Source of the DNA: Escherichia phage Bf23
Strand: one strand, 5' to 3'
Sequence record: NC_042564.1
Length of the DNA stretch: 14,504 bases
Below are positions 2,490-14,504 of the stretch, in pieces (within the stretch, counting starts at the first letter, position 1; every line of letters begins with the position of its first letter). The translations under genes and the position numbers were made by a program. The notes under the pieces were generated by a model, which worked only from the letters and a program-made list of their open reading frames with translations, made no database searches and was not told the DNA's origin.

Positions 2490-2726
2490 TTAACTAGACA
2501 CTGGTTCTGCTGGCTGAGATACGGCAGGCTGTTCTAATGTATCTGGTGCTGATACAGAGAAAAGAGCTTGTAATGCTGCAATATCACGCTCGTAAGTTTC
2601 AATACGAGTAGTAAGAGTATCTACCATCTGTTTATGATAGGCTAAGTTATTCTGAGATTCATCTCGAAGAGTTTGCAGTTCTGCAAGACGTGTTAACATA
2701 ATTTCACTAATTAAAGCATTACTCAT
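2490..2726 (-). CDS. hypothetical coiled-coil protein, 78 aa
   Basis: ORF track; ATG with AGGAGA SD; start overlaps stop of 2719-2916 (coupled). Confidence 0.5.
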   Translation of the reverse strand: MSNALISEIMLTRLAELQTLRDESQNNLAYHKQMVDTLTTRIETYERDIAALQALFSVSAPDTLEQPAVSQPAEPVSS

Positions 2727-2916
2727 TTGTTTCTCCTAAATTTTCCGGTTCTTCTAAACGTTTGCCTTCATGATCTACTCGAATAACTCCGCATCCTTCG
2801 CAAACCACAACTGCACCATAACCTTCTTTGACTTCGGCTTCTGTAATCAGACCAGATAAGTCACCAGTATCTCTGCCCCACATATCAATGGAGCATTGTT
2901 TGCAGAAATCAGCCAT
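2719..2916 (-). CDS. hypothetical zinc-ribbon-like protein (two CxxC pairs), 65 aa
   Basis: ORF track; ATG at 2914-2916 with AGGAAA SD; CKQC ... CEGC motif. Confidence 0.55.
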   Translation of the reverse strand: MADFCKQCSIDMWGRDTGDLSGLITEAEVKEGYGAVVVCEGCGVIRVDHEGKRLEEPENLGETNE

Positions 2917-2941
2917 ATTTTATTTCCTATTTAAGTTAATT

Positions 2942-3018
2942 TGGGGTGGCTAGTGGAATTCGAATCCACATAGGCCTGATTCACAATCAGGATCATTAAC
3001 CAATTATGATATAGCCAC
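2942..3018 (-). tRNA. tRNA-His (anticodon GTG)
   Basis: encoded CCA, C73 discriminator, perfect T-arm gtgga/attcgaa/tccac, perfect anticodon stem cctga/tcagg with loop TTGTGAA, perfect acceptor 2946-2952/3012-3018. Confidence 0.8.
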
Positions 3019-3132
3019 AATTGAAAACTCGCAGGGTTAGCGAAACCATCCTCAATTAGCATGTTCTAGAATACTAATCAAGTTATCTCCTATTGCACGC
3101 AGCTCAAGACGAGTACGAATTTTCAATTGTGG
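3015..3132 (-). ncRNA. candidate structured RNA / precursor-processing stem flanking the 5' end of tRNA-His
   Basis: 17-nt inverted repeat ccacaattgaaaactcg (3015-3031) vs cgaattttcaattgtgg (3116-3132), one mismatch, enclosing 84 nt with no credible ORF; the first arm includes the first 4 nt of tRNA-His. Confidence 0.3.
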
Positions 3133-3247
3133 CGGCTCTCAGAAACTCTTCTATTCTAGCCCCAGAAGCTTACCCCCGAACGCCTGTCGGGAAAGTCTTT
3201 CCAAGAGCATCAAATAGCACCGTTACACTTTGAGCCATTGATATATC

Positions 3248-3332
3248 AAGGAACAGAAGGATTTGAACCTTCACGAGATAGACCATTTATCTCAACCGCT
3301 TTTAAGGTATATTTCTAGGAGTGGATGTTCCT
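3248..3332 (-). tRNA. tRNA-like gene, class II length (85 nt), isotype undetermined (possible Leu-TAA) or pseudogene
   Basis: perfect T-arm gaagg/atttgaa/ccttc and perfect 7-bp acceptor (3249-3255/3326-3332) but no canonical anticodon stem; CCA not encoded; contains hairpin agata/gaccatt/tatct. Confidence 0.35.
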
Positions 3333-3386
3333 AGTAAACCTATTCGGCAGTCCCGTCTACCAATTCCGGCATATTCCAAGAATTTT

Positions 3387-3560
3387 TTATAAACCAGCAG
3401 AAGCCTCATTTAAAGCATCAACAATAGCTTCACGCTGGGTCATTCCATACCCGGTGGAGTCTAGGTGAGGCAAATAGGCTGCCCACCCATTATCTGTTTC
3501 ATGAAGGAATGCTTTAAATTTTTTACCGTCCTTCATTGTTACAGTAACTGTTTTGCTCAT
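3387..3560 (-). CDS. small ORF (57 aa), possibly HicB/UPF0150-like fold
   Basis: ATG at 3558-3560 with AAGGAA SD; translation ...ETDNGWAAYLPHLDSTGYGMTQREAIVDALNEASAGL resembles the HicB N-terminal domain pattern; below ORF-track size cut-off. Confidence 0.4.
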   Translation of the reverse strand: MSKTVTVTMKDGKKFKAFLHETDNGWAAYLPHLDSTGYGMTQREAIVDALNEASAGL

Positions 3561-3580
3561 AAGGATTCCTTATAGTTAAT

Positions 3581-3670
3581 TGGAGGAAGGTAATGGAGTC
3601 GAACCATCACCGTATCACTACAGCGGGCTAGTTTTCAAGACTAGTTGCGTACCACTACGCCCTACCTTCC
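3581..3670 (-). tRNA. tRNA-Ser (anticodon TGA)
   Basis: 90 nt with long variable arm; encoded CCA; perfect anticodon stem ctagt/actag with loop CTTGAAA; perfect acceptor 3585-3591/3664-3670. Confidence 0.65.
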
Positions 3671-3677
3671 ATTTGTT

Positions 3678-3768
3678 TGGCGGAAGAGGAGAGATTTGAA
3701 CTCTCAAGCCGTTTTACCAGTCAGCCACTTTCCAAGCGGTTTTCGTCGCCAATTCGATTTGCTCTTCC
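3678..3768 (-). tRNA. tRNA-Ser (anticodon GGA), tentative
   Basis: 91 nt class II; encoded CCA, G73; perfect T-arm gagag/atttgaa/ctctc; perfect acceptor 3682-3688/3762-3768; anticodon loop TTGGAAA with one mismatch in stem; 3-bp D-stem. Confidence 0.5.
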
Positions 3769-3801
3769 AATAATAAGATGATGCCTCTATCACACCAGGC
3801 A

Positions 3802-3880
3802 GTTACGCCTCGCTGGGATTCGAACCCATTAAAACAGCTCAACCGAGATAGTAGGTTTAATTTACTCTGACCATCAAATT
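3802..3880 (-). other. orphan T-arm-like element (degenerate tRNA remnant?)
   Basis: tggg/attcgaa/ccca T-arm-like hairpin at 3814-3828 but no pairing partner for an acceptor stem and no anticodon arm. Confidence 0.25.
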
Positions 3881-3957
3881 TGGTGCGTGACAAGGGATTC
3901 GAACCCTCAAAACCCGACTTCTAAGGACGGTATGTATGCCAATTCCATCAATCACGC
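3881..3957 (-). tRNA. tRNA with anticodon TAG (Leu-type anticodon) on a short-variable-arm scaffold; isotype uncertain
   Basis: encoded CCA, T-arm aaggg/attcgaa/ccctc, acceptor 3885-3891/3951-3957 with one G-U, anticodon loop CTTAGAA with one U-U mismatch in stem, 3-bp D-stem, only 5-nt variable loop. Confidence 0.4.
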
Positions 3958-3962
3958 GTATT

Positions 3963-4036
3963 TGGTGGAGAAAGAGGGAGTTGAACCCTCGTTTTCTGCG
4001 TGCAAAGCAGATGTTCTACCATTAAACTATATCCCC
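3963..4036 (-). tRNA. tRNA-Ala (anticodon TGC)
   Basis: encoded CCA, perfect T-arm gaggg/agttgaa/ccctc, perfect anticodon stem tctgc/gcaga with loop TTTGCAC, acceptor shows G3-U70 (Ala identity pair) plus one mismatch. Confidence 0.65.
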
Positions 4037-4062
4037 AAATTCTTTAGTTTACTAAGGCTATT

Positions 4063-4230
4063 AGCTCGGCGTAACTATAGCACCTTCGCTTCGAGCGGAA
4101 GGAACTACGTCATCTCGCAAACCCGATACACTATTCAGTTGCCGCTGAATCTAGTGGACTAATCTAGAACCTCTCCCAAATCGTAGGGATCGTGCTTTTT
4201 GGCAGCCAGTCCTAGGTCGAGCTAATACCT
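4063..4230 (-). ncRNA. candidate structured RNA in promoter-proximal leader (no ORF)
   Basis: long-range inverted repeat ggctattagctcgg (4063-4076) vs gtcgagctaatacc (4217-4230) enclosing about 140 nt with internal hairpins (ttcag/ctgaa 4133-4148; ctag/ctag); no ORF with RBS. Confidence 0.3.
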
Positions 4231-4274
4231 TAGTGAACTATGATGAGGATTTCCCCTCATCAATTTATATAAAT

Positions 4275-4303
4275 ATTATAACAAGAAATTAAGCATTAAG
4301 CAA
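4275..4303 (-). promoter_or_regulatory. sigma70 promoter (T5 early-promoter-like)
   Basis: minus strand TTGCTT (revcomp 4298-4303) - 17 nt - TATAAT (revcomp 4275-4280); A-run upstream; 8-bp hairpin tgatgagg/cctcatca (4241-4262) immediately downstream of predicted start. Confidence 0.7.
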
Positions 4304-4409
4304 CTGCGTTTTTGAAATTTCTTGGACTTGGTACTCGGTGATAGAATCTAACTATCGCAACCGCCGTGTAAAGACGGGGTTCTCTCATTAAACTAACCGA
4401 GCAAAAATT

Positions 4410-4487
4410 TGGTGGATTGCCTGGGATTCGAACCCAGAACTGACGGATTAAAGGTCCGCTACTCTTATCCAGTTGAGCTAGCAATCC
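4410..4487 (-). tRNA. tRNA-Lys (anticodon TTT)
   Basis: encoded CCA, perfect T-arm ctggg/attcgaa/cccag, perfect acceptor 4414-4420/4481-4487, D-arm GCTC/GAGT, anticodon loop CCTTTAA (C at position 33). Confidence 0.6.
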
Positions 4488-4951
4488 AAATTCTCTACTA
4501 ATAGTTTGAAAGCGTCTAACAGAGGTACTTCAAACCATTCTCCTGATACTTTGTAGTCTTTCAGAAGATTATGTAATGCTTTTTCAGTTCTTCTCTTGTC
4601 CGAGGAGAATCTAAAATGGTATAACTTGTAATCACGATATGGCGAATATGTTTGATAACTAGACAGTCTTTCATTTACGTCTACTGTCATACCTATCTTA
4701 TAGAGTCCAGGCCATGCTGGGTTACCTATTACATATACAAACCCTTCTGTTATAGGGATTTTATGCTCCCTTTTATACTTCAGCAGGTTTAACGCTGCCA
4801 TTCTATAACAGAACTTAAACTCTGAGGATTTTAGTTTACCTTCTTTACCAGATATTTCGTTATACTTCTCCATATACCTACGTATTAAGGAGTCAGTAAT
4901 AGTAAAGTGCTTTGGAAGATCCAGGGCTTGAAGTACACTGTTAATAAGCAT
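4478..4951 (-). CDS. T5orf172-family (GIY-YIG-like) domain protein, 157 aa; putative homing-type nuclease
   Basis: ORF track; motif GFVYVIGNPAWPGLYKIGMTVDVNERLSSYQTYSPYRDYKL typical of the T5orf172 domain; AAGGAAG SD; paralog of 6749-7267; 3' end overlaps 5' end of tRNA-Lys. Confidence 0.8.
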   Translation of the reverse strand: MLINSVLQALDLPKHFTITDSLIRRYMEKYNEISGKEGKLKSSEFKFCYRMAALNLLKYKREHKIPITEGFVYVIGNPAWPGLYKIGMTVDVNERLSSYQTYSPYRDYKLYHFRFSSDKRRTEKALHNLLKDYKVSGEWFEVPLLDAFKLLVENLDC

Positions 4952-5105
4952 AAACTTCCTTAATAGAATGGACTTTTAAGTAAGAATGATTAATCCCAAA
5001 CTCCGCCATTACTTCTTTTTCATCTTTTCCATAATGTGCAAGTAAGGATCTTGAGGTATTATTACCTAAACGTTTGTCACTTACTACTAATCGAAATACT
5101 TTCAT
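4941..5105 (-). CDS. possible small ORF (54 aa)
   Basis: ATG at 5103-5105 with GAGGA SD 7 nt upstream; stop overlaps start region of 4478-4951; below ORF-track cut-off. Confidence 0.35.
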   Translation of the reverse strand: MKVFRLVVSDKRLGNNTSRSLLAHYGKDEKEVMAEFGINHSYLKVHSIKEVYAY

Positions 5106-5125
5106 TTCGAAATCCTCTATTAAAA

Positions 5126-5203
5126 TGGAAGCGGGTGCAGGAATCGAACCTACCTCTTTCTAGCTTATGAGACTAGCGATCTCTACCAGAGATCTAACCC
5201 GCA
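5126..5203 (-). tRNA. tRNA-Met-type (anticodon CAT), possibly initiator-like (position 1-72 unpaired)
   Basis: encoded CCA, T-arm gcagg/aatcgaa/cctac (one G-U), anticodon loop CTCATAA, acceptor 6 bp plus unpaired terminal pair. Confidence 0.55.
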
Positions 5204-5209
5204 ATTGTT

Positions 5210-5285
5210 TGGTCAGTGCGGCAGGACTCGAACCTGCGACCCGAAGCATCCAAGGCTCCCACGCTACCAACTCCGCTACGCACTG
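5210..5285 (-). tRNA. tRNA-Pro (anticodon TGG)
   Basis: encoded CCA, perfect T-arm gcagg/actcgaa/cctgc, perfect acceptor 5214-5220/5279-5285, anticodon loop CTTGGAT. Confidence 0.65.
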
Positions 5286-5316
5286 TTAATTTTTGTTAAC
5301 TCACTTTATAAAATAT

Positions 5317-5345
5317 ATTATACAGATAATTAAGCATAATAGCAA
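5317..5345 (-). promoter_or_regulatory. sigma70 promoter (T5 early-promoter-like)
   Basis: minus strand TTGCTA (revcomp 5340-5345) - 17 nt - TATAAT (revcomp 5317-5322); conserved flanking motif cagataattaagca / aatgaatttttaa. Confidence 0.7.
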
Positions 5346-5372
5346 ATGAATTTTTAATAAATTTACTTATTG

Positions 5373-5472
5373 TGTAGGCCACCTGGGGGCTATCAACCCC
5401 ACGGCTGACAAAGAAGTTTGCGAGACTTCTCTTAAAAGCCAGAATAGACCCGCCGATCTATCGGAACCTACA
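5373..5472 (-). ncRNA. tRNA-like cloverleaf element (about 100 nt), noncanonical; strand uncertain
   Basis: outer stem tgtagg(5373-5378)/cctaca(5467-5472) enclosing three hairpins: ggggg/cccc (5385-5400), agaagt/acttct with 7-nt loop (5412-5430), ccga/tcgg (5453-5464); no TTCGA T-loop, no CCA. Confidence 0.3.
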
Positions 5473-5620
5473 TAATAAGTAAACTTTCGTTTACTTACAC
5501 CTACTTGGTCAGGAGGATTTTCAGCGACTAGAACCGGCCGGAAACTTATCGCCTTGTTTTACTACCACCTTACGGACGCACAAGTTGTTACACGAATGCG
5601 CAAGCTCGGTTTGGTAGATT

Positions 5621-5694
5621 TGGTGCGGTCGGAGGGAATCGAACCCCCAACTTCTGGTTGGCAACCAAAAATTATACCCTTTAACTACGAACGC
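5621..5694 (-). tRNA. tRNA-Gly (anticodon GCC)
   Basis: encoded CCA, T-arm gaggg/aatcgaa/ccccc, anticodon loop TTGCCAA with G-U in stem, acceptor with one mismatch. Confidence 0.55.
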
Positions 5695-5703
5695 AAAATA
5701 AGT

Positions 5704-5824
5704 CATTCTAGGCAGGATTCGAACCTGCTATCACTTGTGCGGACTTACGAGAACCATTCTTTCACTCGAATCGAACGAGCTTCTGCCCTAGCCAAGCTGG
5801 TTTCCCCATCAACCACGCTAGAAT
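5704..5824 (-). ncRNA. composite tRNA-like element with two T-arm motifs (disrupted or expanded tRNA?)
   Basis: perfect T-arm gcagg/attcgaa/cctgc (5712-5728) and perfect 7-bp acceptor-like pairing attctag(5705-5711)/ctagaat(5818-5824), but 121 nt long with a second T-arm-like ctcg/aatcgaa/cgag (5765-5779) and no canonical anticodon arm. Confidence 0.3.
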
Positions 5825-5946
5825 GTTTGATTGTTTTCAGTGCAAGAGTCCGAGTCTTGGACACGACCGCTTCGCAAGTACATAGGCAGCTTATCATGAG
5901 TCAGCACTTCCGAATTGCTAGCTCCGTGTTCTGCACTGAAATTTTA

Positions 5947-6294
5947 TTAGTTTAACCGGAAAGTATTATCTACTTCACCATTAATTGTTCGGCATTCCTC
6001 TGGGATTGTCGGAGTGGCCTTGTATTCCCACCACTCAGCACCGTCATACTCCCCACGTTCTAGCCAAGTTCCATCGGCAAACCATACATTACCATAAAGT
6101 AATTGTCCACCGTATCCAGAATCATATTCAAAGTCTAGGTTATTAAGAAAATCCTCAATATCTTCTTCTGTATAGCCTAAAGGTAGTACCCAAACTTTTT
6201 TATCCCCATAATACCCGAATTCTATTTTAATACACTTAACTTCAGAATTAGTATTTTTTAAGGCAAGTAACAACTCTTCTTTGGCATTACGCAT
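5947..6294 (-). CDS. hypothetical protein, 115 aa
   Basis: ORF track; ATG at 6292-6294; Trp/Tyr/Gly-rich; weak SD. Confidence 0.55.
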   Translation of the reverse strand: MRNAKEELLLALKNTNSEVKCIKIEFGYYGDKKVWVLPLGYTEEDIEDFLNNLDFEYDSGYGGQLLYGNVWFADGTWLERGEYDGAEWWEYKATPTIPEECRTINGEVDNTFRLN

Positions 6295-6319
6295 AGTATA
6301 TTCTCATACTGAATTATTT

Positions 6320-6396
6320 TGGCGCGACCGATGGGATTTGAACCCACATTCTCTCCCGTGACAGGGGAGTACCATTACCAAGCCAGCCCCGGTCGC
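6320..6396 (-). tRNA. tRNA-Asp (anticodon GTC)
   Basis: encoded CCA, G73, T-arm atggg/atttgaa/cccac, perfect anticodon stem ctccc/gggag with loop CTGTCAC, perfect acceptor 6324-6330/6390-6396. Confidence 0.75.
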
Positions 6397-6405
6397 ATAA
6401 TTTAT

Positions 6406-6591
6406 TTACTCAGCTTTGAGTTTTTCAATAGCTGCATTAAGTTCTTTAAGAAACTCTTTTCGTACATTAAGACGATTGAGACTTACTAGTATATCATGTT
6501 TAAGTTCTTCGATGTATTTCTTCTCAACTTCAATATTGTTGATAGTGCTATCACGATGAACCTCTAGCTGTGCAATTACGTTCTTAGACAT
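6406..6591 (-). CDS. hypothetical coiled-coil protein, 61 aa
   Basis: ORF track; ATG with GAGGAAA SD. Confidence 0.5.
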   Translation of the reverse strand: MSKNVIAQLEVHRDSTINNIEVEKKYIEELKHDILVSLNRLNVRKEFLKELNAAIEKLKAE

Positions 6592-6694
6592 ACTTATTTC
6601 CTCAGTTATTAATGAAAATGGTATCTGTGGCTGAATTCGATGTCAGCAATGATAGCTGGTTTGGCTACCGGTTTACTTAACTCTACACAGAATT

Positions 6695-6772
6695 TGGCGG
6701 TTCCTGCTGGATTCGAACCAGCAACCCTCAACTTAACAAGATGCCGCTCTAACCAATTAGAGCTAAGGAACC
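6695..6772 (-). tRNA. tRNA-Asn (anticodon GTT), tentative
   Basis: encoded CCA, perfect T-arm gctgg/attcgaa/ccagc, perfect acceptor 6699-6705/6766-6772, D-arm GCTC/GAGC, anticodon loop TTGTTAA but two mismatches in anticodon stem. Confidence 0.5.
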
Positions 6773-7267
6773 ATATAAGTCAGAACTAGAGTTAATACGT
6801 TCTAGATATTTACTAAGATCTCTAGAATTTATACTAAACCACTCATGTTCTTTTAAATCTTTGAAATACTGGTGAATTAGTTTTTCACCTTTTCGTTTGT
6901 CAAACCAAAAAGACCAATGCTCTAACTTATAATCCCTATAAGGGGAATAAGTCTGATATTGAGCTAATCTCTCTTTTGGATTTTGACTCATGCCTATTTT
7001 ATACTGATTTTTCCATGCAGGATTACTAATACAGTATACAAAACCTTCAGAAATAGGAAGTTTATTTTCCTGCTTAAACTTTATAAAGGAAAGTGCAGCA
7101 AGTTTTCTCGAATACATAGTATTTGTATTCTTTTTGGTATTACCATTGGTTCCTGAAAGATTTATATATTCTTCCATAAATCTTTGGATTAGTTCTGCAG
7201 TTATATAGAAGGGCTCATTAGTAACAACGCCTTTCTTTACCAAACTATCAAAAACTTTTGTATGCAC
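6749..7267 (-). CDS. T5orf172-family (GIY-YIG-like) domain protein, 172 aa; paralog of 4478-4951
   Basis: ORF track; GTG start with AAGGAAAGG SD; motif GFVYCISNPAWKNQYKIGMSQNPKERLAQYQTYSPYRDYKL; 3' end overlaps 5' end of tRNA 6695-6772; the T5orf172 domain is, as I recall, named after a 172-aa ORF of phage T5. Confidence 0.8.
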   Translation of the reverse strand: MHTKVFDSLVKKGVVTNEPFYITAELIQRFMEEYINLSGTNGNTKKNTNTMYSRKLAALSFIKFKQENKLPISEGFVYCISNPAWKNQYKIGMSQNPKERLAQYQTYSPYRDYKLEHWSFWFDKRKGEKLIHQYFKDLKEHEWFSINSRDLSKYLERINSSSDLYGSLALIG

Positions 7268-7288
7268 TACGCCTTTCCTTTAGTAATT

Positions 7289-7364
7289 TGGACGACCGCA
7301 TGAGATTTGAACTCACATAAAAAGGATTTGCAATCCTTCGCCTAAGCCATTCAGCCAACGGTCG
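7289..7364 (-). tRNA. tRNA-Cys (anticodon GCA)
   Basis: encoded CCA, T-arm atgag/atttgaa/ctcac, perfect anticodon stem aagga/tcctt with loop TTGCAAA, acceptor with one G-U. Confidence 0.75.
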
Positions 7365-7542
7365 ATTTATCTTGTTTTTCGAGATCTTCAAATTCTAAAT
7401 CATTGAAGTTCCCTAGAGTACGGGAGTAGAACCCGTCTCCTGCGTCATAGCCTGATTTGCCACAATCACACATTTTAAATTCACGAAGATGTGTAAAAAC
7501 ATGTTCAGAACCACAACACTTAAATCTAACTAATCGTTTCAT
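7351..7542 (-). CDS. hypothetical Cys-rich (zinc-finger-like) protein, 63 aa
   Basis: ORF track; ATG with GGAGAAG SD; KCCGSEH ... CDCG; 3' end overlaps 5' end of tRNA-Cys by about 14 nt. Confidence 0.5.
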   Translation of the reverse strand: MKRLVRFKCCGSEHVFTHLREFKMCDCGKSGYDAGDGFYSRTLGNFNDLEFEDLEKQDKSTVG

Positions 7543-9165: not shown

Positions 9166-9849
9166 TCATCTATTTTTCTTAATACTTTTAGGATCTTTCC
9201 CTGTTAGGGACTTATACCTTTTCCTTAATCCAGTATCAGACAATCCTAGTTCTTTGGAGGCACGAATCCAGGAATATTTAGATACCCAGTACTCTATTTG
9301 CTCCACAGTAATATCTGGATTTATAGTTATCTCTTTAGGAGTACATGATTTACAGTGTGTTGCTCTTGAGCTAATTTCGCAGTGACAAATAGCACACGTA
9401 TTTACAGTCCTTTCTGTATACCTGCCAATATTTTTGCCTGCATGAGTAGGTGTTAGTGCATGGCAATTTGGGCATAGGAGGGCTAAGTTATCCCATTCAT
9501 TATTATAGTGATTTCCATCCTTATGTTCAAGTTCTAAAGGAATTGGTTTATCTAACCAACTTTCTAAGCCACAACTCTCACATTTATGTGGTTTTAGCCC
9601 CTCGTTAAGAATTTTATTCTTTAGTTTATAGGAAGAAATAGGGCTGCCGTTATATAAATACTCTGTTGCAGACTTATATTTATTATCATACTGCCTATTC
9701 GCAGGGATAACTACTATTCCTAGTTTTCCTAAATATGCTTCCAAAGTGTTCGAGGAGCAGGATAGCATTCTTGCTATCTCTGCTTTAGATTTTCCCTGAG
9801 CTATCCACTGAGCTATTTCTTCCTTTCTATCTAGTATATCAGTTCTCAT
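9166..9849 (-). CDS. HNH homing endonuclease with HTH-like regions and an extra Cys/His cluster, 227 aa
   Basis: ORF track; HNH motif CESCG ... LELEHKDGNHYNNEWDNLALLCPNCHA; additional CAICHC ... HCKSC; helix-turn-helix-like segments at both ends. Confidence 0.85.
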   Translation of the reverse strand: MRTDILDRKEEIAQWIAQGKSKAEIARMLSCSSNTLEAYLGKLGIVVIPANRQYDNKYKSATEYLYNGSPISSYKLKNKILNEGLKPHKCESCGLESWLDKPIPLELEHKDGNHYNNEWDNLALLCPNCHALTPTHAGKNIGRYTERTVNTCAICHCEISSRATHCKSCTPKEITINPDITVEQIEYWVSKYSWIRASKELGLSDTGLRKRYKSLTGKDPKSIKKNR

Positions 9850-9872
9850 AGTTTATGACTTTTTAATTAAGT

Positions 9873-9950
9873 TGGTGGCTCCCCGAGGATTCGAACCTAC
9901 GTACCTTCCAGTTATGAGCTGGGTGCTCATACCATATGAGCTTGAGAACC
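9873..9950 (-). tRNA. tRNA with anticodon CAT (Met, initiator or Ile2 type)
   Basis: encoded CCA, acceptor 9877-9883/9944-9950 with two G-U, D-arm gctc/gagc, anticodon loop CTCATAA; T-stem has only 3 good pairs. Confidence 0.5.
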
Positions 9951-9956
9951 AGAATT

Positions 9957-10045
9957 TGGCGGAAGAAGTGGGAATCGAACCCACAAGGCTATATTTCAAA
10001 CCGACAGATTAGCAATCTGCTGCAATACCGTTATGCTATTCTTCC
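9957..10045 (-). tRNA. tRNA-Ser (anticodon GCT)
   Basis: 89 nt class II, encoded CCA, G73, perfect T-arm gtggg/aatcgaa/cccac, perfect acceptor 9961-9967/10039-10045, anticodon loop TTGCTAA. Confidence 0.65.
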
Positions 10046-10059
10046 GAATTTATAAATAT

Positions 10060-10088
10060 ATTATATTAGAAATTTAGCTTCATAGCAA
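10060..10088 (-). promoter_or_regulatory. sigma70 promoter (T5 early-promoter-like), inside 3' end of CDS 10066-10584
   Basis: minus strand TTGCTA (revcomp 10083-10088) - 17 nt - TATAAT (revcomp 10060-10065); A-run upstream. Confidence 0.65.
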
Positions 10089-10584
10089 GAAAATTTTTCA
10101 AGTTTTCGGTAGACATCTCATCCACATCTACAGGGGAAACAAACCCATTTAACTGTCTAGCAAACTTTTCGCCAGCAGGATCATTATCCCCAACAGCTAC
10201 CAATTTAAAAGGTAGTAATTTCAATTGCTTTAATAGCGCTTTTCCTGGAGAAGAACCCAACATTGCCAGGGCTGGATAACCAGCGTTATGTAACGCAACT
10301 GCCTTAAATACAGATTCAGCAATCAATACTACTTTTTCATCTCCATTGAGAGTTTCTAGTCCCCATACACACTGTGTAGTAGAATAAGTAAAATATCTAG
10401 CCTCAAAGGGGCACTTACCATGACCTTTTGGAGCAGAAGGATTATAAGTCTGATAGCCTCTCAACATCCCAGAGAAGTCATACAATGGGACTGTTAGCCA
10501 TCCTTCCGGGCTTAACCAGCAATGATATTTATCTGTATCAAATCCTCTAGATAAGAGATGTTCTGTTAGTTCATCAACAGTCAT
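10066..10584 (-). CDS. Toprim-domain protein (DnaG/OLD/RNase M5-type fold), 172 aa
   Basis: ORF track 10066-10635; ATG at 10582-10584 has GAGAGAGGAA SD and lies downstream of the promoter start, whereas the ORF-track ATG at 10635 lies within the promoter; motifs VVLIAESVFKAVALHNAGYPALAMLGS and LVAVGDNDPAGEKF (conserved Glu and DxD). Confidence 0.7.
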   Translation of the reverse strand: MTVDELTEHLLSRGFDTDKYHCWLSPEGWLTVPLYDFSGMLRGYQTYNPSAPKGHGKCPFEARYFTYSTTQCVWGLETLNGDEKVVLIAESVFKAVALHNAGYPALAMLGSSPGKALLKQLKLLPFKLVAVGDNDPAGEKFARQLNGFVSPVDVDEMSTENLKNFLAMKLNF

Positions 10585-10614
10585 ATTAGATTCCTCTCTC
10601 AAATTTATAAATAT

Positions 10615-10643
10615 ATTATACAGAGAATTTAGCATTCAAGCAA
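10615..10643 (-). promoter_or_regulatory. sigma70 promoter closely resembling classic coliphage T5 early promoters
   Basis: minus strand reads aaaaaattcaaTTGCTTgaatgctaaattctctgTATAATatatttataaatttgagagaggaa; as I recall it, T5 PN25 shares TTGCTT -35, CTGTATAAT, and the initial transcribed motif ATAAATTTGAGAGAGGA. Confidence 0.8.
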
Positions 10644-10759
10644 TTGAATTTTTTAACTTTTTAGAGGAAAATCACAGGATGCTTAAGGGTAGCAGGTAAG
10701 TGGTCAGGACCGAAATTTGTGACCCCACTAAAAATCTGGGGGCAATTTTTAAAGACCCC

Positions 10760-10788
10760 TTGACATTTTAGCCGGGGTAGTATAAAGT
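10760..10788 (+). promoter_or_regulatory. putative sigma70 promoter of the plus-strand cassette (divergent from 10615-10643)
   Basis: perfect -35 TTGACA (10760-10765); -10 candidates TATAAA (spacer 15) or TAAAGT (spacer 17); about 60-nt leader before AGGAGG SD. Confidence 0.55.
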
Positions 10789-10850
10789 ATATGTTATGGA
10801 TGAGTGATCAAAGAGACACACATTTTCTATATACTAGGAGGTGTCAAAAA

Positions 10851-11831
10851 ATGACAGAAGAAGTAGCTAAGAGTCCTGAAACCGTCGCTAGCGTAGCAGC
10901 AGAACTGCATCGTCACGAGGAATCAGATAAGAAAAAGTGGGAGAACGTCAAAGCCTACGAAGAAGAACATCGTGTTCACGATGATAAAGATGAAGAAGAT
11001 GACGATGATGAACATTGTCATAAATATGGAAAACATAAAATGCAAGAACCAGTAAACGTATTTACTAACGGCTTCCCTGGCATGGGTGCATTCCCAGCTA
11101 ATGCAAGTGCTTTCGGTGGAGAAGGTATGGGCCTATTCGGAGCTATCCTAATCGGTGCTCTATTAACAGGCGGATTTGGTGGTTTTGGTGGTTTTGGTCG
11201 CGGTGCTGGTGTTGCCGCTGAAGGAACCGCTGTGGACGCGATCCTTTCTAACCAAGATACTGCAAGTATTCTAGCTGCAATCAATACTACTCGTACAGAA
11301 GCTAATCAGGGCACCGGGGCTGTTCTAAGCGCAGTAAACGGTGTGGGAGCTGCTCAAGCTGCTAGCACTCAGCAAGTTCTGACTACTATCTACGGTACAG
11401 GTGCTAATCTGTCAAACCAGATCTGTGCTGAAACTCGTAACGTTATTCAGGGTCAGTTCGATCTTTCTCGTCAGATGGATCAATCTTTCGCTGCTAACCA
11501 GATCGCACGTGCTCAAGATAAGTTTGACTCTGCTCAGATTGCTTTCCAGCAGTCTATTCAGACTAACAACCAGTTTGCCGCTGTTCAGGCTCAGATGTGT
11601 GCTAACCAGAATGCTATCGAACGTCAGCTTGCCGAATGTTGCTGTGAGCTTCAGACTGCGATCGCTGGTGTAACTACTGCACGTATCCAGGACGAACTGA
11701 ATGAATGCCGTCTGCGCGAAGCAATCGCTGCAGGTAGCGGTGCAAATGGTCAGGTAATCAACCAAATCGCTGTAAGTCTTGGTGCTATCACTCAGACTCT
11801 GGCTGGTCTGCAGGCTAAACTGCCGGCTTAA
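10851..11831 (+). CDS. hypothetical low-complexity protein, 326 aa: acidic His-rich N-terminus, Gly-rich hydrophobic segment, Gln/Ala-rich helical C-terminal region with Cys cluster (ECCCE)
   Basis: ATG at 10851 with AGGAGG SD 9 nt upstream (ORF-track start 10791 lies within the promoter/leader); GGFGGFGGFG segment; opposite-strand ORFs 11018-11284 and 11412-11894 look like antisense artefacts; codons look E. coli-optimal by eye. Confidence 0.7.
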   Translation: MTEEVAKSPETVASVAAELHRHEESDKKKWENVKAYEEEHRVHDDKDEEDDDDEHCHKYGKHKMQEPVNVFTNGFPGMGAFPANASAFGGEGMGLFGAILIGALLTGGFGGFGGFGRGAGVAAEGTAVDAILSNQDTASILAAINTTRTEANQGTGAVLSAVNGVGAAQAASTQQVLTTIYGTGANLSNQICAETRNVIQGQFDLSRQMDQSFAANQIARAQDKFDSAQIAFQQSIQTNNQFAAVQAQMCANQNAIERQLAECCCELQTAIAGVTTARIQDELNECRLREAIAAGSGANGQVINQIAVSLGAITQTLAGLQAKLPA

Positions 11832-11852
11832 AATTAAGGGGAGGAGCCCATT

Positions 11853-12269
11853 ATGAGTAAATATGGTTTTGTAAACAACGGATTTAATCAACAAATGGGC
11901 TCCCAGCAGCCCGTTCCTGGTCTGGATAATCCTTACCTACAACAGTTGCAACAGCATTTAGCAGAAGCGCAACAGATGCAGCAACAACTCCAGCAAAACC
12001 CTGGAAGTGTGAGTCCTATGCAAATGATGCAGCAAATGAGCGGGCAGTCGCAAATGCCTCAACAAATGCAGCAACAGGTGCCTCAGCAGCAAGTTCAGCA
12101 ACAAACCCAACAACCGCAGGTTTCTGCGGAAGGACAGGCAGTACTAGCCCTTTTCGAAGATTTCGCAAAGACAGAGGATGGGAAACAGCTTGTATCACTT
12201 ATGGGTAAGTTTAATAGCTTCTGCCAAAGCCAAGTTGCAAAAGCTCAAAATGGTGGTAATAACTCCTAA
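11853..12269 (+). CDS. hypothetical Gln-rich (prion-like composition) protein, 138 aa
   Basis: ORF track; ATG with GGGGAGGAG SD; 21 nt after the stop of the upstream gene; long Q/M/P-rich tract then short structured C-terminus. Confidence 0.65.
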   Translation: MSKYGFVNNGFNQQMGSQQPVPGLDNPYLQQLQQHLAEAQQMQQQLQQNPGSVSPMQMMQQMSGQSQMPQQMQQQVPQQQVQQQTQQPQVSAEGQAVLALFEDFAKTEDGKQLVSLMGKFNSFCQSQVAKAQNGGNNS

Positions 12270-12278
12270 GGAGGAATT

Positions 12279-12473
12279 ATGTGTTGCAGAAAATCTGTTT
12301 CGTGCTGCCCAATGCCTGTAGCACGTTGTTGCTCTCCAGCAATGTTTACACAAATACCGGCGTTCAATCCCTTTGCCTTTAAGCCTACTCTTATCCTGCC
12401 CCCTAGAGTAGATTTTCAGTCAAGATTGGCCTCCCGTATGGGTGGTTGCTGTAATAAGAGTATATGGTTCTAA
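12279..12473 (+). CDS. hypothetical Cys-rich small protein, 64 aa (four CC doublets)
   Basis: ORF track; ATG with AAGGAGG SD that overlaps the TAA stop of the upstream gene; followed by rho-independent terminator. Confidence 0.55.
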   Translation: MCCRKSVSCCPMPVARCCSPAMFTQIPAFNPFAFKPTLILPPRVDFQSRLASRMGGCCNKSIWF

Positions 12474-12488
12474 AGAACCAAACAATAA

Positions 12489-12524
12489 AGCCCCTAGTCG
12501 AAAGACTTAGGGGCTTTTCTTTTA
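12489..12524 (+). terminator. rho-independent terminator of the plus-strand cassette
   Basis: GC-rich hairpin agcccctagtc / gacttaggggct followed by TTTTCTTTT. Confidence 0.7.
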
Positions 12525-12536
12525 TCTTAAGTACAG

Positions 12537-12576
12537 AAAAGCCCTGCGCTCTCCAGGGAACGCAGGGCTTACTTCG
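12537..12576 (-). terminator. rho-independent terminator downstream of SPFH gene (convergent with 12489-12524)
   Basis: hairpin agccctgcg / cgcagggct; on the minus strand it is followed by TTTTCTGT. Confidence 0.65.
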
Positions 12577-12593
12577 AATATTACGTGTGGGTA

Positions 12594-13541
12594 TTACTTG
12601 TTACGCATATCCATAATCATCTGGCCATCGTAACCAGTGCCAACTACTGTTTGCGGTACACCACCTTGATATTTCTGAGCACGAATCATTTCAACTTCTA
12701 GTTGTTTCCAACGAATCATCTCAGGAGTAATAGTACGTTGCAGAGCGGCGTTAGCTTCAGCTTCTTTCTTAGCTGCGTACAGTTTAGCATCTGCATCACG
12801 TTCGTTTGCAATAGCTTGGTTGTTACGAGCTTCACGATCTGCTTCTGCTTGTTTAACCTTCTGCTGTGCTTCTTGTTCAACACGAGCCAATTCAGCTTTC
12901 GCAGCATTAACTTGTTCTTCACGAACTTTGGTATTCTGTACCTGTTCCATAATTACCGGTGGCAATGTAATATCCTGAAGGAACACTTGCTTAACTGTGT
13001 AACCATAAGGGCGTGCGTACTCTTCAACTTCCTGCTGAATTGCAGTTTGCAATTGTGCTTGAATTTTAGCATCAAACAAATCTTGTGCTTTAGGTACAGA
13101 CTTACCAAACTCACGAATAGTAGATAGTAATTTCTCAGTTACATACTTATCTAGAGCCTGATCCTGGGTGCCTGCGTTAATACGGTTAATCGGTGCCTTA
13201 GAACCATCAAATTGTAACATAACAGTCAGGTCAACAGTGGATTTAAACTTATCCTGGCTAGGAACCTGAAGTTTATCTAATTTTACAGCAATATCTTTTG
13301 TACTAAAAGTATCGAAAGATGCAAATGGGTTTACAAGATGGAAACCAGGTAATACTGGGTTAGGATCTACTTTACCTAGAAATGTTTGGGTTTTAACCGT
13401 ACCATCAGAAACAATAGTATATGAATTAAAAGCTAGGATTAAACCTGCTAAACCAACTACAGCACCAATACCCCAACGTTTAATAGTGCGAATTACTTTT
13501 TGCTCAGAAGTCAGTTCTTTCATATTTTTAGTATTAAACAT
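12594..13541 (-). CDS. SPFH/band-7 (stomatin/prohibitin/HflK-HflC-like) membrane protein, 315 aa
   Basis: ORF track; ATG with AAGGAA SD; N-terminal transmembrane helix (WGIGAVVGLAGLILAF), SPFH-like core, C-terminal Ala/Glu/Gln-rich coiled coil. Confidence 0.8.
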   Translation of the reverse strand: MFNTKNMKELTSEQKVIRTIKRWGIGAVVGLAGLILAFNSYTIVSDGTVKTQTFLGKVDPNPVLPGFHLVNPFASFDTFSTKDIAVKLDKLQVPSQDKFKSTVDLTVMLQFDGSKAPINRINAGTQDQALDKYVTEKLLSTIREFGKSVPKAQDLFDAKIQAQLQTAIQQEVEEYARPYGYTVKQVFLQDITLPPVIMEQVQNTKVREEQVNAAKAELARVEQEAQQKVKQAEADREARNNQAIANERDADAKLYAAKKEAEANAALQRTITPEMIRWKQLEVEMIRAQKYQGGVPQTVVGTGYDGQMIMDMRNK

Positions 13542-13575
13542 ATATTTCCTTTGTTTTAGTTACAGTTAATAAAAT

Positions 13576-13650
13576 TGGCCGAGGTGACAGGATTCGAACC
13601 TGCATAAAGGAATTTAGAAGACTCCTGCCTCTCCCTTAGACTACACCCCG
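13576..13650 (-). tRNA. tRNA-Arg (anticodon TCT), tentative
   Basis: encoded CCA, T-arm acagg/attcgaa/cctgc, acceptor 13580-13586/13644-13650 with G-U, anticodon loop CTTCTAA with G-U in stem; D-arm poorly defined. Confidence 0.5.
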
Positions 13651-14152
13651 TTTAAGTATTTTTAAGAACTCTCGTAAAAACTCTTAAAAATACAGACGAT
13701 ACCGGGAGAGTCATAAGTCTCACTCATTAAGTATTTCAAGACAAAATACAGTAACGTCTATTATTTTCCAGTTTAAGTCAAGGTGACTTAGTGGTTATGT
13801 CCTGCGGTATGCTGAGGACTCGGTTAGGCTAGGGTCATGACTCCCCACCTTTTTGCTGCTACTCAACAGGAGTTATCGCGAATTACCTGTGCTATTGTGC
13901 ACCATTAGTGGCATCTCTCATGCCAGCATTTCCCACTTTGTGGATAGTTTGAAAAACTACTCCGATATGGAGAAAGAACTTCACTATCCTAGAATACCTT
14001 CTAAAGTTCTTCTTTAGCCTGGACATAGTTAAATCGTAATAAAACTATTCAGCAGACTGGTTGGTTAGTCTGGAACCAACTACCGCGTGGTTTAGGCAGT
14101 GCGCAACTAACCTCGGAAGCTTTTACGTTAAAAGCATCAGTTATCCAGTTCT

Positions 14153-14224
14153 TACCGTCCGTAGGATTCGAACCTACATCTTCCACCAGTTACGGCTTGA
14201 TAATACCAATTATACTAGGACGGC
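14153..14224 (-). tRNA. tRNA-like gene, isotype undetermined (possible pseudogene)
   Basis: perfect T-arm gtagg/attcgaa/cctac (14161-14177) and 6-7 bp acceptor pairing (14154-14160/14218-14224) but no recognizable anticodon stem; CCA not encoded. Confidence 0.35.
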
Positions 14225-14447
14225 AGTGTTACTACATAAGTGATTTCCACACCCCACTATTTATAAATTAGAGAAGAGTTTAGGGGAGAGGTTTCAGACG
14301 CCCCATTTTATACGTTCTAGCCACTAACCGGGATTGCCGCCCCCTGTGTACTAGTTTTACAACTAACCCACCGACTCTATTCAGTGCACTCCGGTTGGGA
14401 TTCTGCACTCAGCGTAATCGGCTCGCTGTTCCCTAATTTATGAATAT

Positions 14448-14476
14448 ATTATACAGAATTTATAAGCATTTAGCAA
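14448..14476 (-). promoter_or_regulatory. sigma70 promoter (T5 early-promoter-like)
   Basis: minus strand TTGCTA (revcomp 14471-14476) - 17 nt - TATAAT (revcomp 14448-14453); conserved motif cagaatttataagca / aatgaatttttag. Confidence 0.7.
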
Positions 14477-14504
14477 ATGAATTTTTAGAAAAATTCACTA
14501 GCAG

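Follow-up and report, generated by a model that had tools for sequence, protein, structure and literature searches.

The region analysed here is a stretch of 14,504 nucleotides (nt) of Escherichia phage Bf23 (sequence record NC_042564.1), which is called the window below and is numbered from its first letter. It is the part of the genome of coliphage BF23, a T5-like phage (Tequintavirus), that holds the early transfer RNA (tRNA) genes. Positions 4300-7400 match Escherichia phage Bf23 (OR083247.1) at 99.9% identity and the alignable parts of T5 at about 96%. ARAGORN predicts 23 tRNAs in the window, all of them on the minus strand, and Rfam adds one more. Two open reading frames (ORFs) within this array, designated ORF A and ORF B, are homing-endonuclease-like genes whose products belong to the T5orf172 branch within the GIY-YIG superfamily. 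Both are inserted into spacers of a few nucleotides just 5' of a tRNA gene of the early tRNA operon, ORF A before tRNA-Lys and ORF B before tRNA-Asn. The inserts supply a ribosome-binding site and a start codon, conserved nucleotides of the tRNA supply the TAG stop codon, and each of the two genes is co-inherited with its own tRNA allele.

Gene boundaries and overlaps with tRNA genes

The 3' end of ORF A reads ...TTG GAT TGC TAG, in which GAT TGC TAG corresponds to nucleotides 2-10 of tRNA-Lys and the stop codon (4480-4478) to U8-A9-G10. ORF B ends with ...TAT GGT TCC TTA GCT CTA ATT GGT TAG, the final eight codons being nucleotides 1-24 of tRNA-Asn and the stop codon (6751-6749) nucleotides 22-24, which are located in the D-loop. 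The Rfam model RF00005 (gathering score 29 bits) places the 5' ends of the two tRNAs at 4487 (59.9 bits) and 6772 (55.4 bits), in agreement with ARAGORN. The original prediction for this DNA, made from the sequence alone, had located the stop codons 10-24 nt inside tRNA-Lys and tRNA-Asn, and this is exact, as the ORF list, ARAGORN and Rfam agree. Its description of a common domain core with divergent termini holds as well: the proteins share about 50% amino acid identity over residues 16-151 of ORF A, and part of the difference at their termini comes from tRNA sequence, which makes up the final three codons of ORF A and the final eight of ORF B, stop codons included. The Shine-Dalgarno-like AAGGAAG of ORF A arises from substitutions in the 3' end of the upstream ORF which occur only in genomes carrying ORF A, and the GTG start codon of ORF B is preceded by the Shine-Dalgarno-like sequence AAAGGAAAGG (7281-7272). 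The coordinates of all features are listed in Table 1.

Table 1 Features of the ORF A and ORF B loci in the window
Feature	Position	Strand	Description
tRNA-Lys(UUU)	4410..4487	-	ARAGORN, same 5' end in Rfam; 78 nt, ORF A-linked allele
ORF A	4478..4951	-	157 amino acids (aa), ATG start; T5orf172 (GIY-YIG superfamily) homing-endonuclease-like gene
ORF A/tRNA-Lys overlap	4478..4487	-	10 nt
ORF A nuclease core	4750-4481 (residues 68-157)	-	
ORF A helical part	4951-4757 (residues 1-65)	-	Three helices
Resident 54-aa ORF	4941..5105	-	T5.065 homologue; shares its final 11 nt with the start of ORF A
Shine-Dalgarno-like AAGGAAG	4955..4961	-	Separated from the ATG of ORF A by three bases (TTT); read directly
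Promoter-like site	5317..5345	-	Best match, 10/12 consensus positions; consensus match only
tRNA-Asn(GUU)	6695..6772	-	ARAGORN, same 5' end in Rfam; 78-nt allele found with ORF B
ORF B	6749..7267	-	172 aa, GTG start; T5orf172 homing-endonuclease-like gene; orthologue of T5.069
ORF B/tRNA-Asn overlap	6749..6772	-	24 nt
ORF B insertion	6773..7282	-	510 bp relative to the S124 empty site, precisely at tRNA-Asn position +1
ORF B nuclease core	7045-6794 (residues 75-158)	-	
tRNA-Cys	7289..7364	-	ARAGORN; bounds the ORF B insertion site on its upstream side

Protein family, predicted fold and selection

In Pfam, ORF A matches MUG113 with 69.5 bits (E 4e-19) and T5orf172 with 54.7 bits (E 2e-14), and ORF B matches the same families with 59.3 bits (E 5e-16) and 47.6 bits (E 2.5e-12), the cut-offs being 22.3 bits for MUG113 (PF13455) and 20 bits for T5orf172 (PF10544). 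Both proteins belong to PHROG 5032, a family without assigned function. In an alignment of 94 homologues, G70, Y73, N77, K85, G87, R95, T101, P104, R106, E123, E138 and W139 (ORF A numbering) are invariant. By analogy with GIY-YIG active sites, Y73, R95 and E138 would correspond to the tyrosine of the first strand, the arginine after the second strand and the metal-binding glutamate, respectively. The AlphaFold model of ORF A (predicted local distance difference test score 90.4, predicted template modelling score 0.83) has three helices at the N-terminus (residues 2-62) and, after them, a core of the order strand-strand-helix-strand-helix, which is the alpha/beta fold of GIY-YIG nucleases. The assignment of both genes to the T5orf172 GIY-YIG group, which had been proposed from the translations, is thus borne out by Pfam, by the conserved catalytic-type residues and by the predicted fold. 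A sequence profile search of the PDB returned no relative, and a Foldseek search gave no significant match. The N-terminal three-helix domain is probably a DNA-binding domain, and we infer that both proteins cleave DNA at positions such as those considered below.

The ratio of nonsynonymous to synonymous substitution rates (dN/dS) is 0.045 for ORF A (BF23 versus phage S133) and 0.06-0.08 for ORF B; since these values are far below 1, both ORFs have been kept as proteins. A likely role is thereby available for genes which are annotated as hypothetical in T5 (T5.069), in BF23 and in more than 150 related phage records.

Distribution and insertion sites

About 560 records of T5-like phages match the region, only seven of which cover at least 80% of it. 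Orthologues of ORF A (at least 80% amino acid identity) occur in 84 of these records and orthologues of ORF B (at least 90%) in 78, the full tRNA-Cys/ORF B/tRNA-Asn segment being present in about 80, so that each gene is found in just about 15% of the T5-like records. T5 itself has ORF B (T5.069, annotated as hypothetical protein) with the same 24-nt overlap and lacks ORF A; at the latter position T5.065 directly abuts tRNA-Lys, and the locus is otherwise 96% identical. Gene order without any presence/absence variation among relatives, which the original prediction had named as an outcome that would contradict it, is therefore not what is found, and empty sites exist for ORF B. As expected of free-standing homing endonuclease genes, presence and absence occur at the same locus, and for ORF B the empty site is precise.

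In Salmonella phage S124, tRNA-Cys is followed by tRNA-Asn in the arrangement CCA-aattac-GGTTCC, and in phage phagemcphageface a second empty site reads CCA-aatttat-GGTTCC, both with the same 78-nt tRNA-Asn allele. The insert defined by comparison with S124 contains the ribosome-binding site, the GTG start codon and the body of ORF B, and it carries no stop codon. Natural alleles with and without ORF B thus differ by a single 510-bp insertion at tRNA position +1 and represent clean experimental material. For ORF A, the only sites without the gene that were found carry a different tRNA-Lys allele. The ORF A cassette has its left junction in the final approximately 15 nt of the upstream 54-aa ORF; the junction alters the C-terminus encoded by this ORF and creates the ribosome-binding site and the start codon of ORF A.

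Between Tequintavirus and Epseptimavirus, the synonymous divergence (dS) of ORF B is 0.29, that of the flanking genes mostly 0.4-1.3 (range 0.07-1.3); a value below that of most flanking genes fits a fairly recent transfer. For ORF A, dS is about 2.2 and saturated, and the gene has been retained in two genera. A test of whether a given nuclease clade keeps to a single tRNA identity gave a negative answer: sister paralogues of the T5orf172 type are found before tRNAs of different identity (Glu/Asn, Asn/Glu and Glu/Leu), and the tRNA-Pro group alone is coherent. Among relatives without ORF B, many have a conserved 152-nt spacer between tRNA-Cys and an 83-nt tRNA-Asn (positions 4178-4329 in Shivani; also in S133 and four other loci), and others have just 7-8 nt between these two tRNA genes.

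Linkage to tRNA alleles

All loci carrying ORF A have an identical 78-nt tRNA-Lys (GGATTGCTAGCTCAACTGGATAAG...), whereas loci without ORF A have either a 79-nt tRNA-Lys (AGATCGC...) or the T5-type tRNA-Lys (GGGTTGC...), which are 74-77% identical to the ORF A-linked allele. Among the loci examined, the ORF A-type tRNA-Lys was present in 7/7 with and 0/18 without the gene. In the phage collection this tRNA occurs in 86 records, in 84 of which it is accompanied by an ORF A orthologue or joined to the 3' end of ORF A; the other two are records of Yersinia phage phiR2-01, and the one that was checked carries this 157-aa ORF too, again overlapping the tRNA by 10 nt. ORF B is accompanied by the 78-nt tRNA-Asn in every case. 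Conversely, ORF B is present in 10 of the 11 loci in which ARAGORN calls the 78-nt tRNA-Asn and in none of 11 loci with other tRNA-Asn alleles; S124, read by eye, is a second locus with the 78-nt allele and without the gene. Most genomes lacking ORF B possess an unrelated 83-nt tRNA-Asn(GUU) with a long variable arm (e.g. Shivani, Lindwurm), a feature unusual for tRNA-Asn. In Klebsiella phages, a tRNA-Asn 96% identical to the 78-nt allele is preceded by a different paralogue with about 47% identity to ORF B.

Similar associations exist for other nuclease genes: the alleles of tRNA-Asp, tRNA-Leu and one tRNA-Glu family that are linked to a nuclease gene were not seen in loci without it, and the nuclease-linked alleles of tRNA-Gln and tRNA-Ser(GGA) each occurred once also without a full-length gene. 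When the arrays of the otherwise close phages BF23, T5, S133, S124 and Lindwurm were compared, many tRNAs with the same anticodon proved to be either 95-100% or just about 58-75% identical, and between BF23 and T5 the alleles of tRNA-Pro, tRNA-Gln, tRNA-Leu(UAG), tRNA-Ala and tRNA-Lys are divergent. Whole tRNA genes have been swapped repeatedly, and not just beside nuclease genes. The linkage of ORF A and ORF B to particular alleles is strong evidence of co-inheritance, short of proving nuclease-driven conversion; the co-inheritance of a flanking marker that would be expected from co-conversion is found for both genes as genome linkage, not as an observed conversion event. The earlier suggestion of ongoing nuclease-driven remodelling of the tRNA array gains support from the tRNA allele swaps and from the positions of T5orf172 paralogues and HNH genes before other tRNAs.

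Stop codons inside tRNA genes

All ORFs of at least 50 aa that end near a tRNA gene were clustered for 30 loci, which gave 13 homing-endonuclease-like families (nine T5orf172 paralogue families and four HNH families) and 15 resident small-ORF families, the latter being counted if seen in at least three loci. The stop codon lies 6-27 nt inside the downstream tRNA in 12 of the 13 nuclease families, and the remaining one ends exactly at the boundary, whereas only 2 of the 15 resident families overlap a tRNA (Fisher p = 7e-5); the others end 1-43 nt upstream with a stop codon of their own, usually TAA. The borrowed stops are TAG, TAA or TGA triplets within the first 27 nt of the tRNA, mostly at conserved core positions, namely nucleotides 8-10 (U8-A9-G10 = TAG) in five cases, nucleotides 12-15 in three and D-loop nucleotides 20-27 in four. 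Because the overlap is kept in every orthologue of ORF A and ORF B that was examined and because the two groups of families differ so clearly, it exceeds chance.

In T5, hegD extends 23 nt into tRNA-Gln(CUG) and hegC/F-TflI 14 nt into tRNA-Ser(GGA); an HNH gene of S124 extends 10 nt into tRNA-Asp, and T5orf172 paralogues extend into tRNA-Glu, tRNA-Leu and tRNA-Asn. Outside the T5-like coliphages, nuclease genes stop 10 nt inside tRNA-Asn in Klebsiella phage Sugarland, 27 nt inside tRNA-Lys in the T4-like Aeromonas phage 44RR2.8t and 22 nt inside tRNA-Glu in Vibrio phage KIT04. Five of six metagenomic contigs with close full-length homologues are tRNA arrays, with six nuclease genes in these five; the offsets from the tRNA 5' end are +5, -4, +13, 0, +10 and 0 for five of the contexts. 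Of the six genes, three stop inside the tRNA, two abut it and one has its own stop codon 164 nt upstream of the next tRNA. A tRNA association of the whole T5orf172 family was considered and rejected: only one of 69 more distant relatives in IMG/VR abuts a tRNA, and a marine homologue sits between the genes for DnaB and DNA polymerase. The tRNA niche is therefore a property of the close full-length subfamily that shares the N-terminal domain.

Proposed mechanism

The promoter-like site in Table 1 is located upstream of tRNA-Pro, tRNA-fMet, the 54-aa ORF, ORF A, tRNA-Lys and tRNA-Val, and the BF23 annotation has a promoter at the equivalent position. The consensus scan revealed no promoter-like site between either nuclease gene and its tRNA, and ORF A is therefore probably carried on a tRNA precursor transcript. 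The numbers of hits in promoter and terminator scans of the window were not above those for shuffled sequence, so that transcription units can be deduced from them only weakly.

We consider it likely that both genes encode T5orf172-type homing endonucleases of the free-standing kind, that they spread as nuclease-plus-tRNA cassettes and that their expression is limited by 5' processing of the tRNA. During co-infection, the nuclease would cut the gene-less allele of a related phage in or beside the tRNA gene, and recombinational repair would copy the nuclease gene together with the tRNA, thereby displacing the resident tRNA with the same anticodon. The simplest target for ORF B would be the junction between tRNA-Cys and the 78-nt tRNA-Asn, which is split by the insertion. 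For ORF A, the 5' half of tRNA-Lys is the part that is most divergent between the alleles, which would fit target-site immunity. Cleavage by ribonuclease P (RNase P) at tRNA position +1 would part the coding sequence from its stop codon and, because this codon lies inside the mature tRNA, would strand the nuclease message without a stop; this loss probably holds the nuclease level low. Cassettes that replace resident tRNAs of the same anticodon would explain why the tRNA alleles of T5-like phages form a patchwork.

Several points weigh against this mechanism. For all members of this T5orf172 subfamily, cleavage activity and target site are predictions. The expression-damping step is a proposal, and the precedent of T4 segB is conceptual, not structural, because that gene stops 5 nt short of tRNA-Arg. 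Domestication of the proteins would agree equally with the very low dN/dS. Among the 86 records with the ORF A-type tRNA-Lys, none that lacks ORF A was found. In S133 the nuclease gene before tRNA-Glu precedes the common tRNA allele, as does the tRNA-Pro nuclease gene, so that the cassette rule is not absolute. Moreover, tRNA allele dimorphism is widespread (about 60-75% versus 95-100% identity) and includes positions without a nuclease gene, and part of the linkage could therefore reflect general mosaic recombination.

Alternative explanations

That the overlap is merely an annotation artefact, the ORFs being unexpressed or the tRNA boundaries wrong, is hardly credible: although most databases list ORF A and ORF B only as hypothetical proteins, two independent tRNA finders give the same 5' ends, full-length orthologues occur in more than 80 genomes each, dN/dS is far below 1, the Pfam matches are strong, the predicted fold is confident, and both genes have Shine-Dalgarno-like sequences. 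A more serious, though still less favoured, possibility is that the homing genes are real and the stop codon inside the tRNA is a passive by-product without regulatory role. The spacers between the tRNA genes at empty sites are just 6-8 nt long, and positions 8-10 and the D-loop of tRNAs offer TAG or TAA in two of the three frames, so that any insert without a stop codon would end inside the tRNA; the positions at which the borrowed stops cluster (five, three and four cases, as given above) agree with this. The overlap is also not obligatory, as the genes of some close relatives stop right at the edge of the tRNA or 4 nt short of it and segB ends upstream of its tRNA. A purely passive origin is harder to reconcile with the recurrence of the pattern in two unrelated nuclease families (T5orf172 and HNH) and four phage groups, and with its retention across ORF A orthologues despite saturated synonymous divergence, particularly since a change of one base could give an earlier stop codon and none is present in the orthologues examined.

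It is rather improbable that the T5orf172 proteins have been domesticated, be it for the exclusion of competitors by cutting their tRNA arrays, for DNA binding as regulators in the manner of the T5orf172-related CapR or for a SegB-like amplification of tRNA genes against host defences. Such a function would account for the strong purifying constraint (dN/dS 0.045-0.08) and for the persistence of ORF A in two genera at saturated dS, and precedents exist, because T5orf172-related domains have been co-opted in ICP1 and in the satellite PLE (PMC10448857) and the amplification of tRNAs driven by SegB counters the Septu defence (PMC13096335). A fixed function is, however, at odds with the absence of the genes from about 85% of the relatives, and the exact empty sites of ORF B and the paralogues hopping between tRNAs are hallmarks of selfish mobility; the invariance of the catalytic-type residues likewise speaks against it. 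Spread of ORF A and ORF B as homing cassettes together with their tRNAs thus remains the explanation we favour.

Variant tRNAs and a possible link to host defence

Position 33 of tRNAs is almost universally U and adjoins the cleavage site of the anticodon nuclease PrrC. The ORF A-linked tRNA-Lys(UUU) has the anticodon loop CCUUUAA (approximately 4448-4454) with C at position 33, whereas the resident alleles have CUUUUAA. Aeromonas phage 44RR2.8t has the identical anticodon arm (GCGGA-CCUUUAA-UCCGU), and so do three uncultivated viral contigs. In these contigs the acceptor stems differ and there is no adjacent T5orf172 gene, and the idea that a tRNA-Lys with C33 is specific to nuclease-linked alleles was therefore rejected. 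In the ORF B-linked tRNA-Asn, the anticodon stem contains a G.A and a U.U mismatch. Phage tRNAs are currently regarded as a counter to host defences that cleave tRNAs, and a mechanism which shuffles tRNA alleles would for this reason bear on the conflict between phage and host and on the design of therapeutic T5-like phages. A further-reaching idea, which we regard as doubtful, is that the nuclease genes drive the spread of variant tRNAs from which the phage benefits. If the tRNA-Lys with C33 and the tRNA-Asn with the mismatched stem resist such defences, each unit would couple a selfish nuclease to an anti-defence tRNA, the shared stop codon keeping the pair inseparable.

Other features of the window and related arrays

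The additional tRNA found by Rfam (9876-9950, minus strand; 38.2 bits) was missed by ARAGORN and is identical to the tRNA-Ile2(CAU) gene of T5; the HNH gene hegA/F-TflIV (9166-9849) starts 26 nt downstream of it. At 14152-14225 (minus strand), ARAGORN predicts a tRNA-Ser with the anticodon ACU, an A at position 33 and the loop UAACUGG (Rfam 39.6 bits), which looks like a non-canonical tRNA or a tRNA-like element. A 63-aa ORF (7351-7542, minus strand) is one of the two overlapping families among the resident ORF families counted above: its TGA stop codon lies 14 nt inside tRNA-Cys in six loci, whereas elsewhere its orthologues terminate 1-3 nt upstream of the tRNA. Past hegA (9850-14504) the window is T5-like, with tRNA-Ser, a Toprim protein and a Band_7 protein, and OR083247.1 has other genes there; the BF23 genome paper describes a deletion of about 4 kb relative to T5 in the region downstream of hegA. 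The window may therefore derive from another stock of BF23 or from a partial record of earlier date. In S124 (positions 2566-5179 of its locus), at least four nuclease genes precede tRNAs in a single array, i.e. an HNH gene before tRNA-Asp, another before tRNA-Phe, a T5orf172 gene before tRNA-Glu, and hegA, which shows how densely nuclease genes can occupy tRNA arrays.

Comparison with known systems

The closest functional analogue of ORF A and ORF B is SegB of phage T4, a free-standing GIY-YIG homing endonuclease encoded in the T4 tRNA gene cluster, which cuts tRNA genes of relatives lacking segB and drives preferential inheritance of the tRNA region (PMC2330249). As in BF23, the nuclease gene lies between tRNA genes and just upstream of one of them; it is carried on the tRNA precursor transcript, as is probable for ORF A, and tRNA processing has been proposed to limit segB expression (PMC2330249). 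Across phages, homologues of SegB show a statistical association with tRNAs, and they promote the amplification of tRNAs as a counter to Septu (PMC13096335). The proteins nevertheless differ in architecture: SegB has its PF01541 match at the N-terminus (residues 3-71), and the Seg family is characterized by an N-terminal PF01541 or SegE_GIY-YIG domain and a C-terminal DNA-binding region, whereas ORF A and ORF B lack a PF01541 match and have the reverse order, with a C-terminal core of the T5orf172 type. Homology to SegB was rejected because of this opposite domain order and an hhalign probability of 0.3%, and a physical overlap of segB with tRNA-Arg was rejected on account of the upstream position of its end.

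The HNH genes of the F-Tfl group in T5 belong to the same phage group and the same tRNA array and have their stop codons inside tRNAs. Their hegC and hegD members show presence/absence variation among relatives and are linked to allele classes distinct from the common tRNA alleles, and F-TflIV is encoded in the window itself. The F-Tfl enzymes differ in belonging to another nuclease superfamily, HNH_3 with a NUMOD4-type N-terminus. The F-Tfl enzymes (2004, as cited in PMC2330249 and PMC3326045) are known to cleave DNA, whereas cleavage by ORF A and ORF B is predicted. The statement in PMC2330249 that cites Ksenzenko extends the processing-based damping to the T5 F-Tfl genes. According to an earlier paper on a T5-like phage, just three HNH homing endonucleases were known in the tRNA region of T5 (PMC3326045).

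Barth, Dunham and Seed (2023, PMC10448857) describe T5orf172 as a subfamily of GIY-YIG proteins whose genes behave like homing genes, are carried in abundance by T5-like phages and adjoin conserved genes at recombination boundaries. The T5orf172 homing genes of ICP1 share the Pfam domain with ORF A and ORF B. They usually contain zinc-finger DNA-binding repeats of the CapR, DUF723 or DUF4397 type in place of the short three-helix N-terminus, and they are located near terminase, nrd, capsid or replisome genes instead of tRNA arrays. A tRNA association, borrowed stop codons or linkage to tRNAs are not described in PMC10448857. Homing endonucleases in phage tRNA clusters and of this family are thus known from close precedents (T4 SegB, the T5 F-Tfl HNH enzymes and the ICP1 T5orf172 proteins). 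The original prediction had mentioned neither the supply of the stop codons by conserved tRNA nucleotides nor the joint movement of each gene with its tRNA allele, nor the precedents of SegB and the F-Tfl genes. The exact empty site, the stop codons taken from conserved tRNA nucleotides and the tight nuclease-tRNA allele cassettes are useful additions, and ORF A and ORF B add a third, unrelated nuclease family to the colonisers of phage tRNA clusters.

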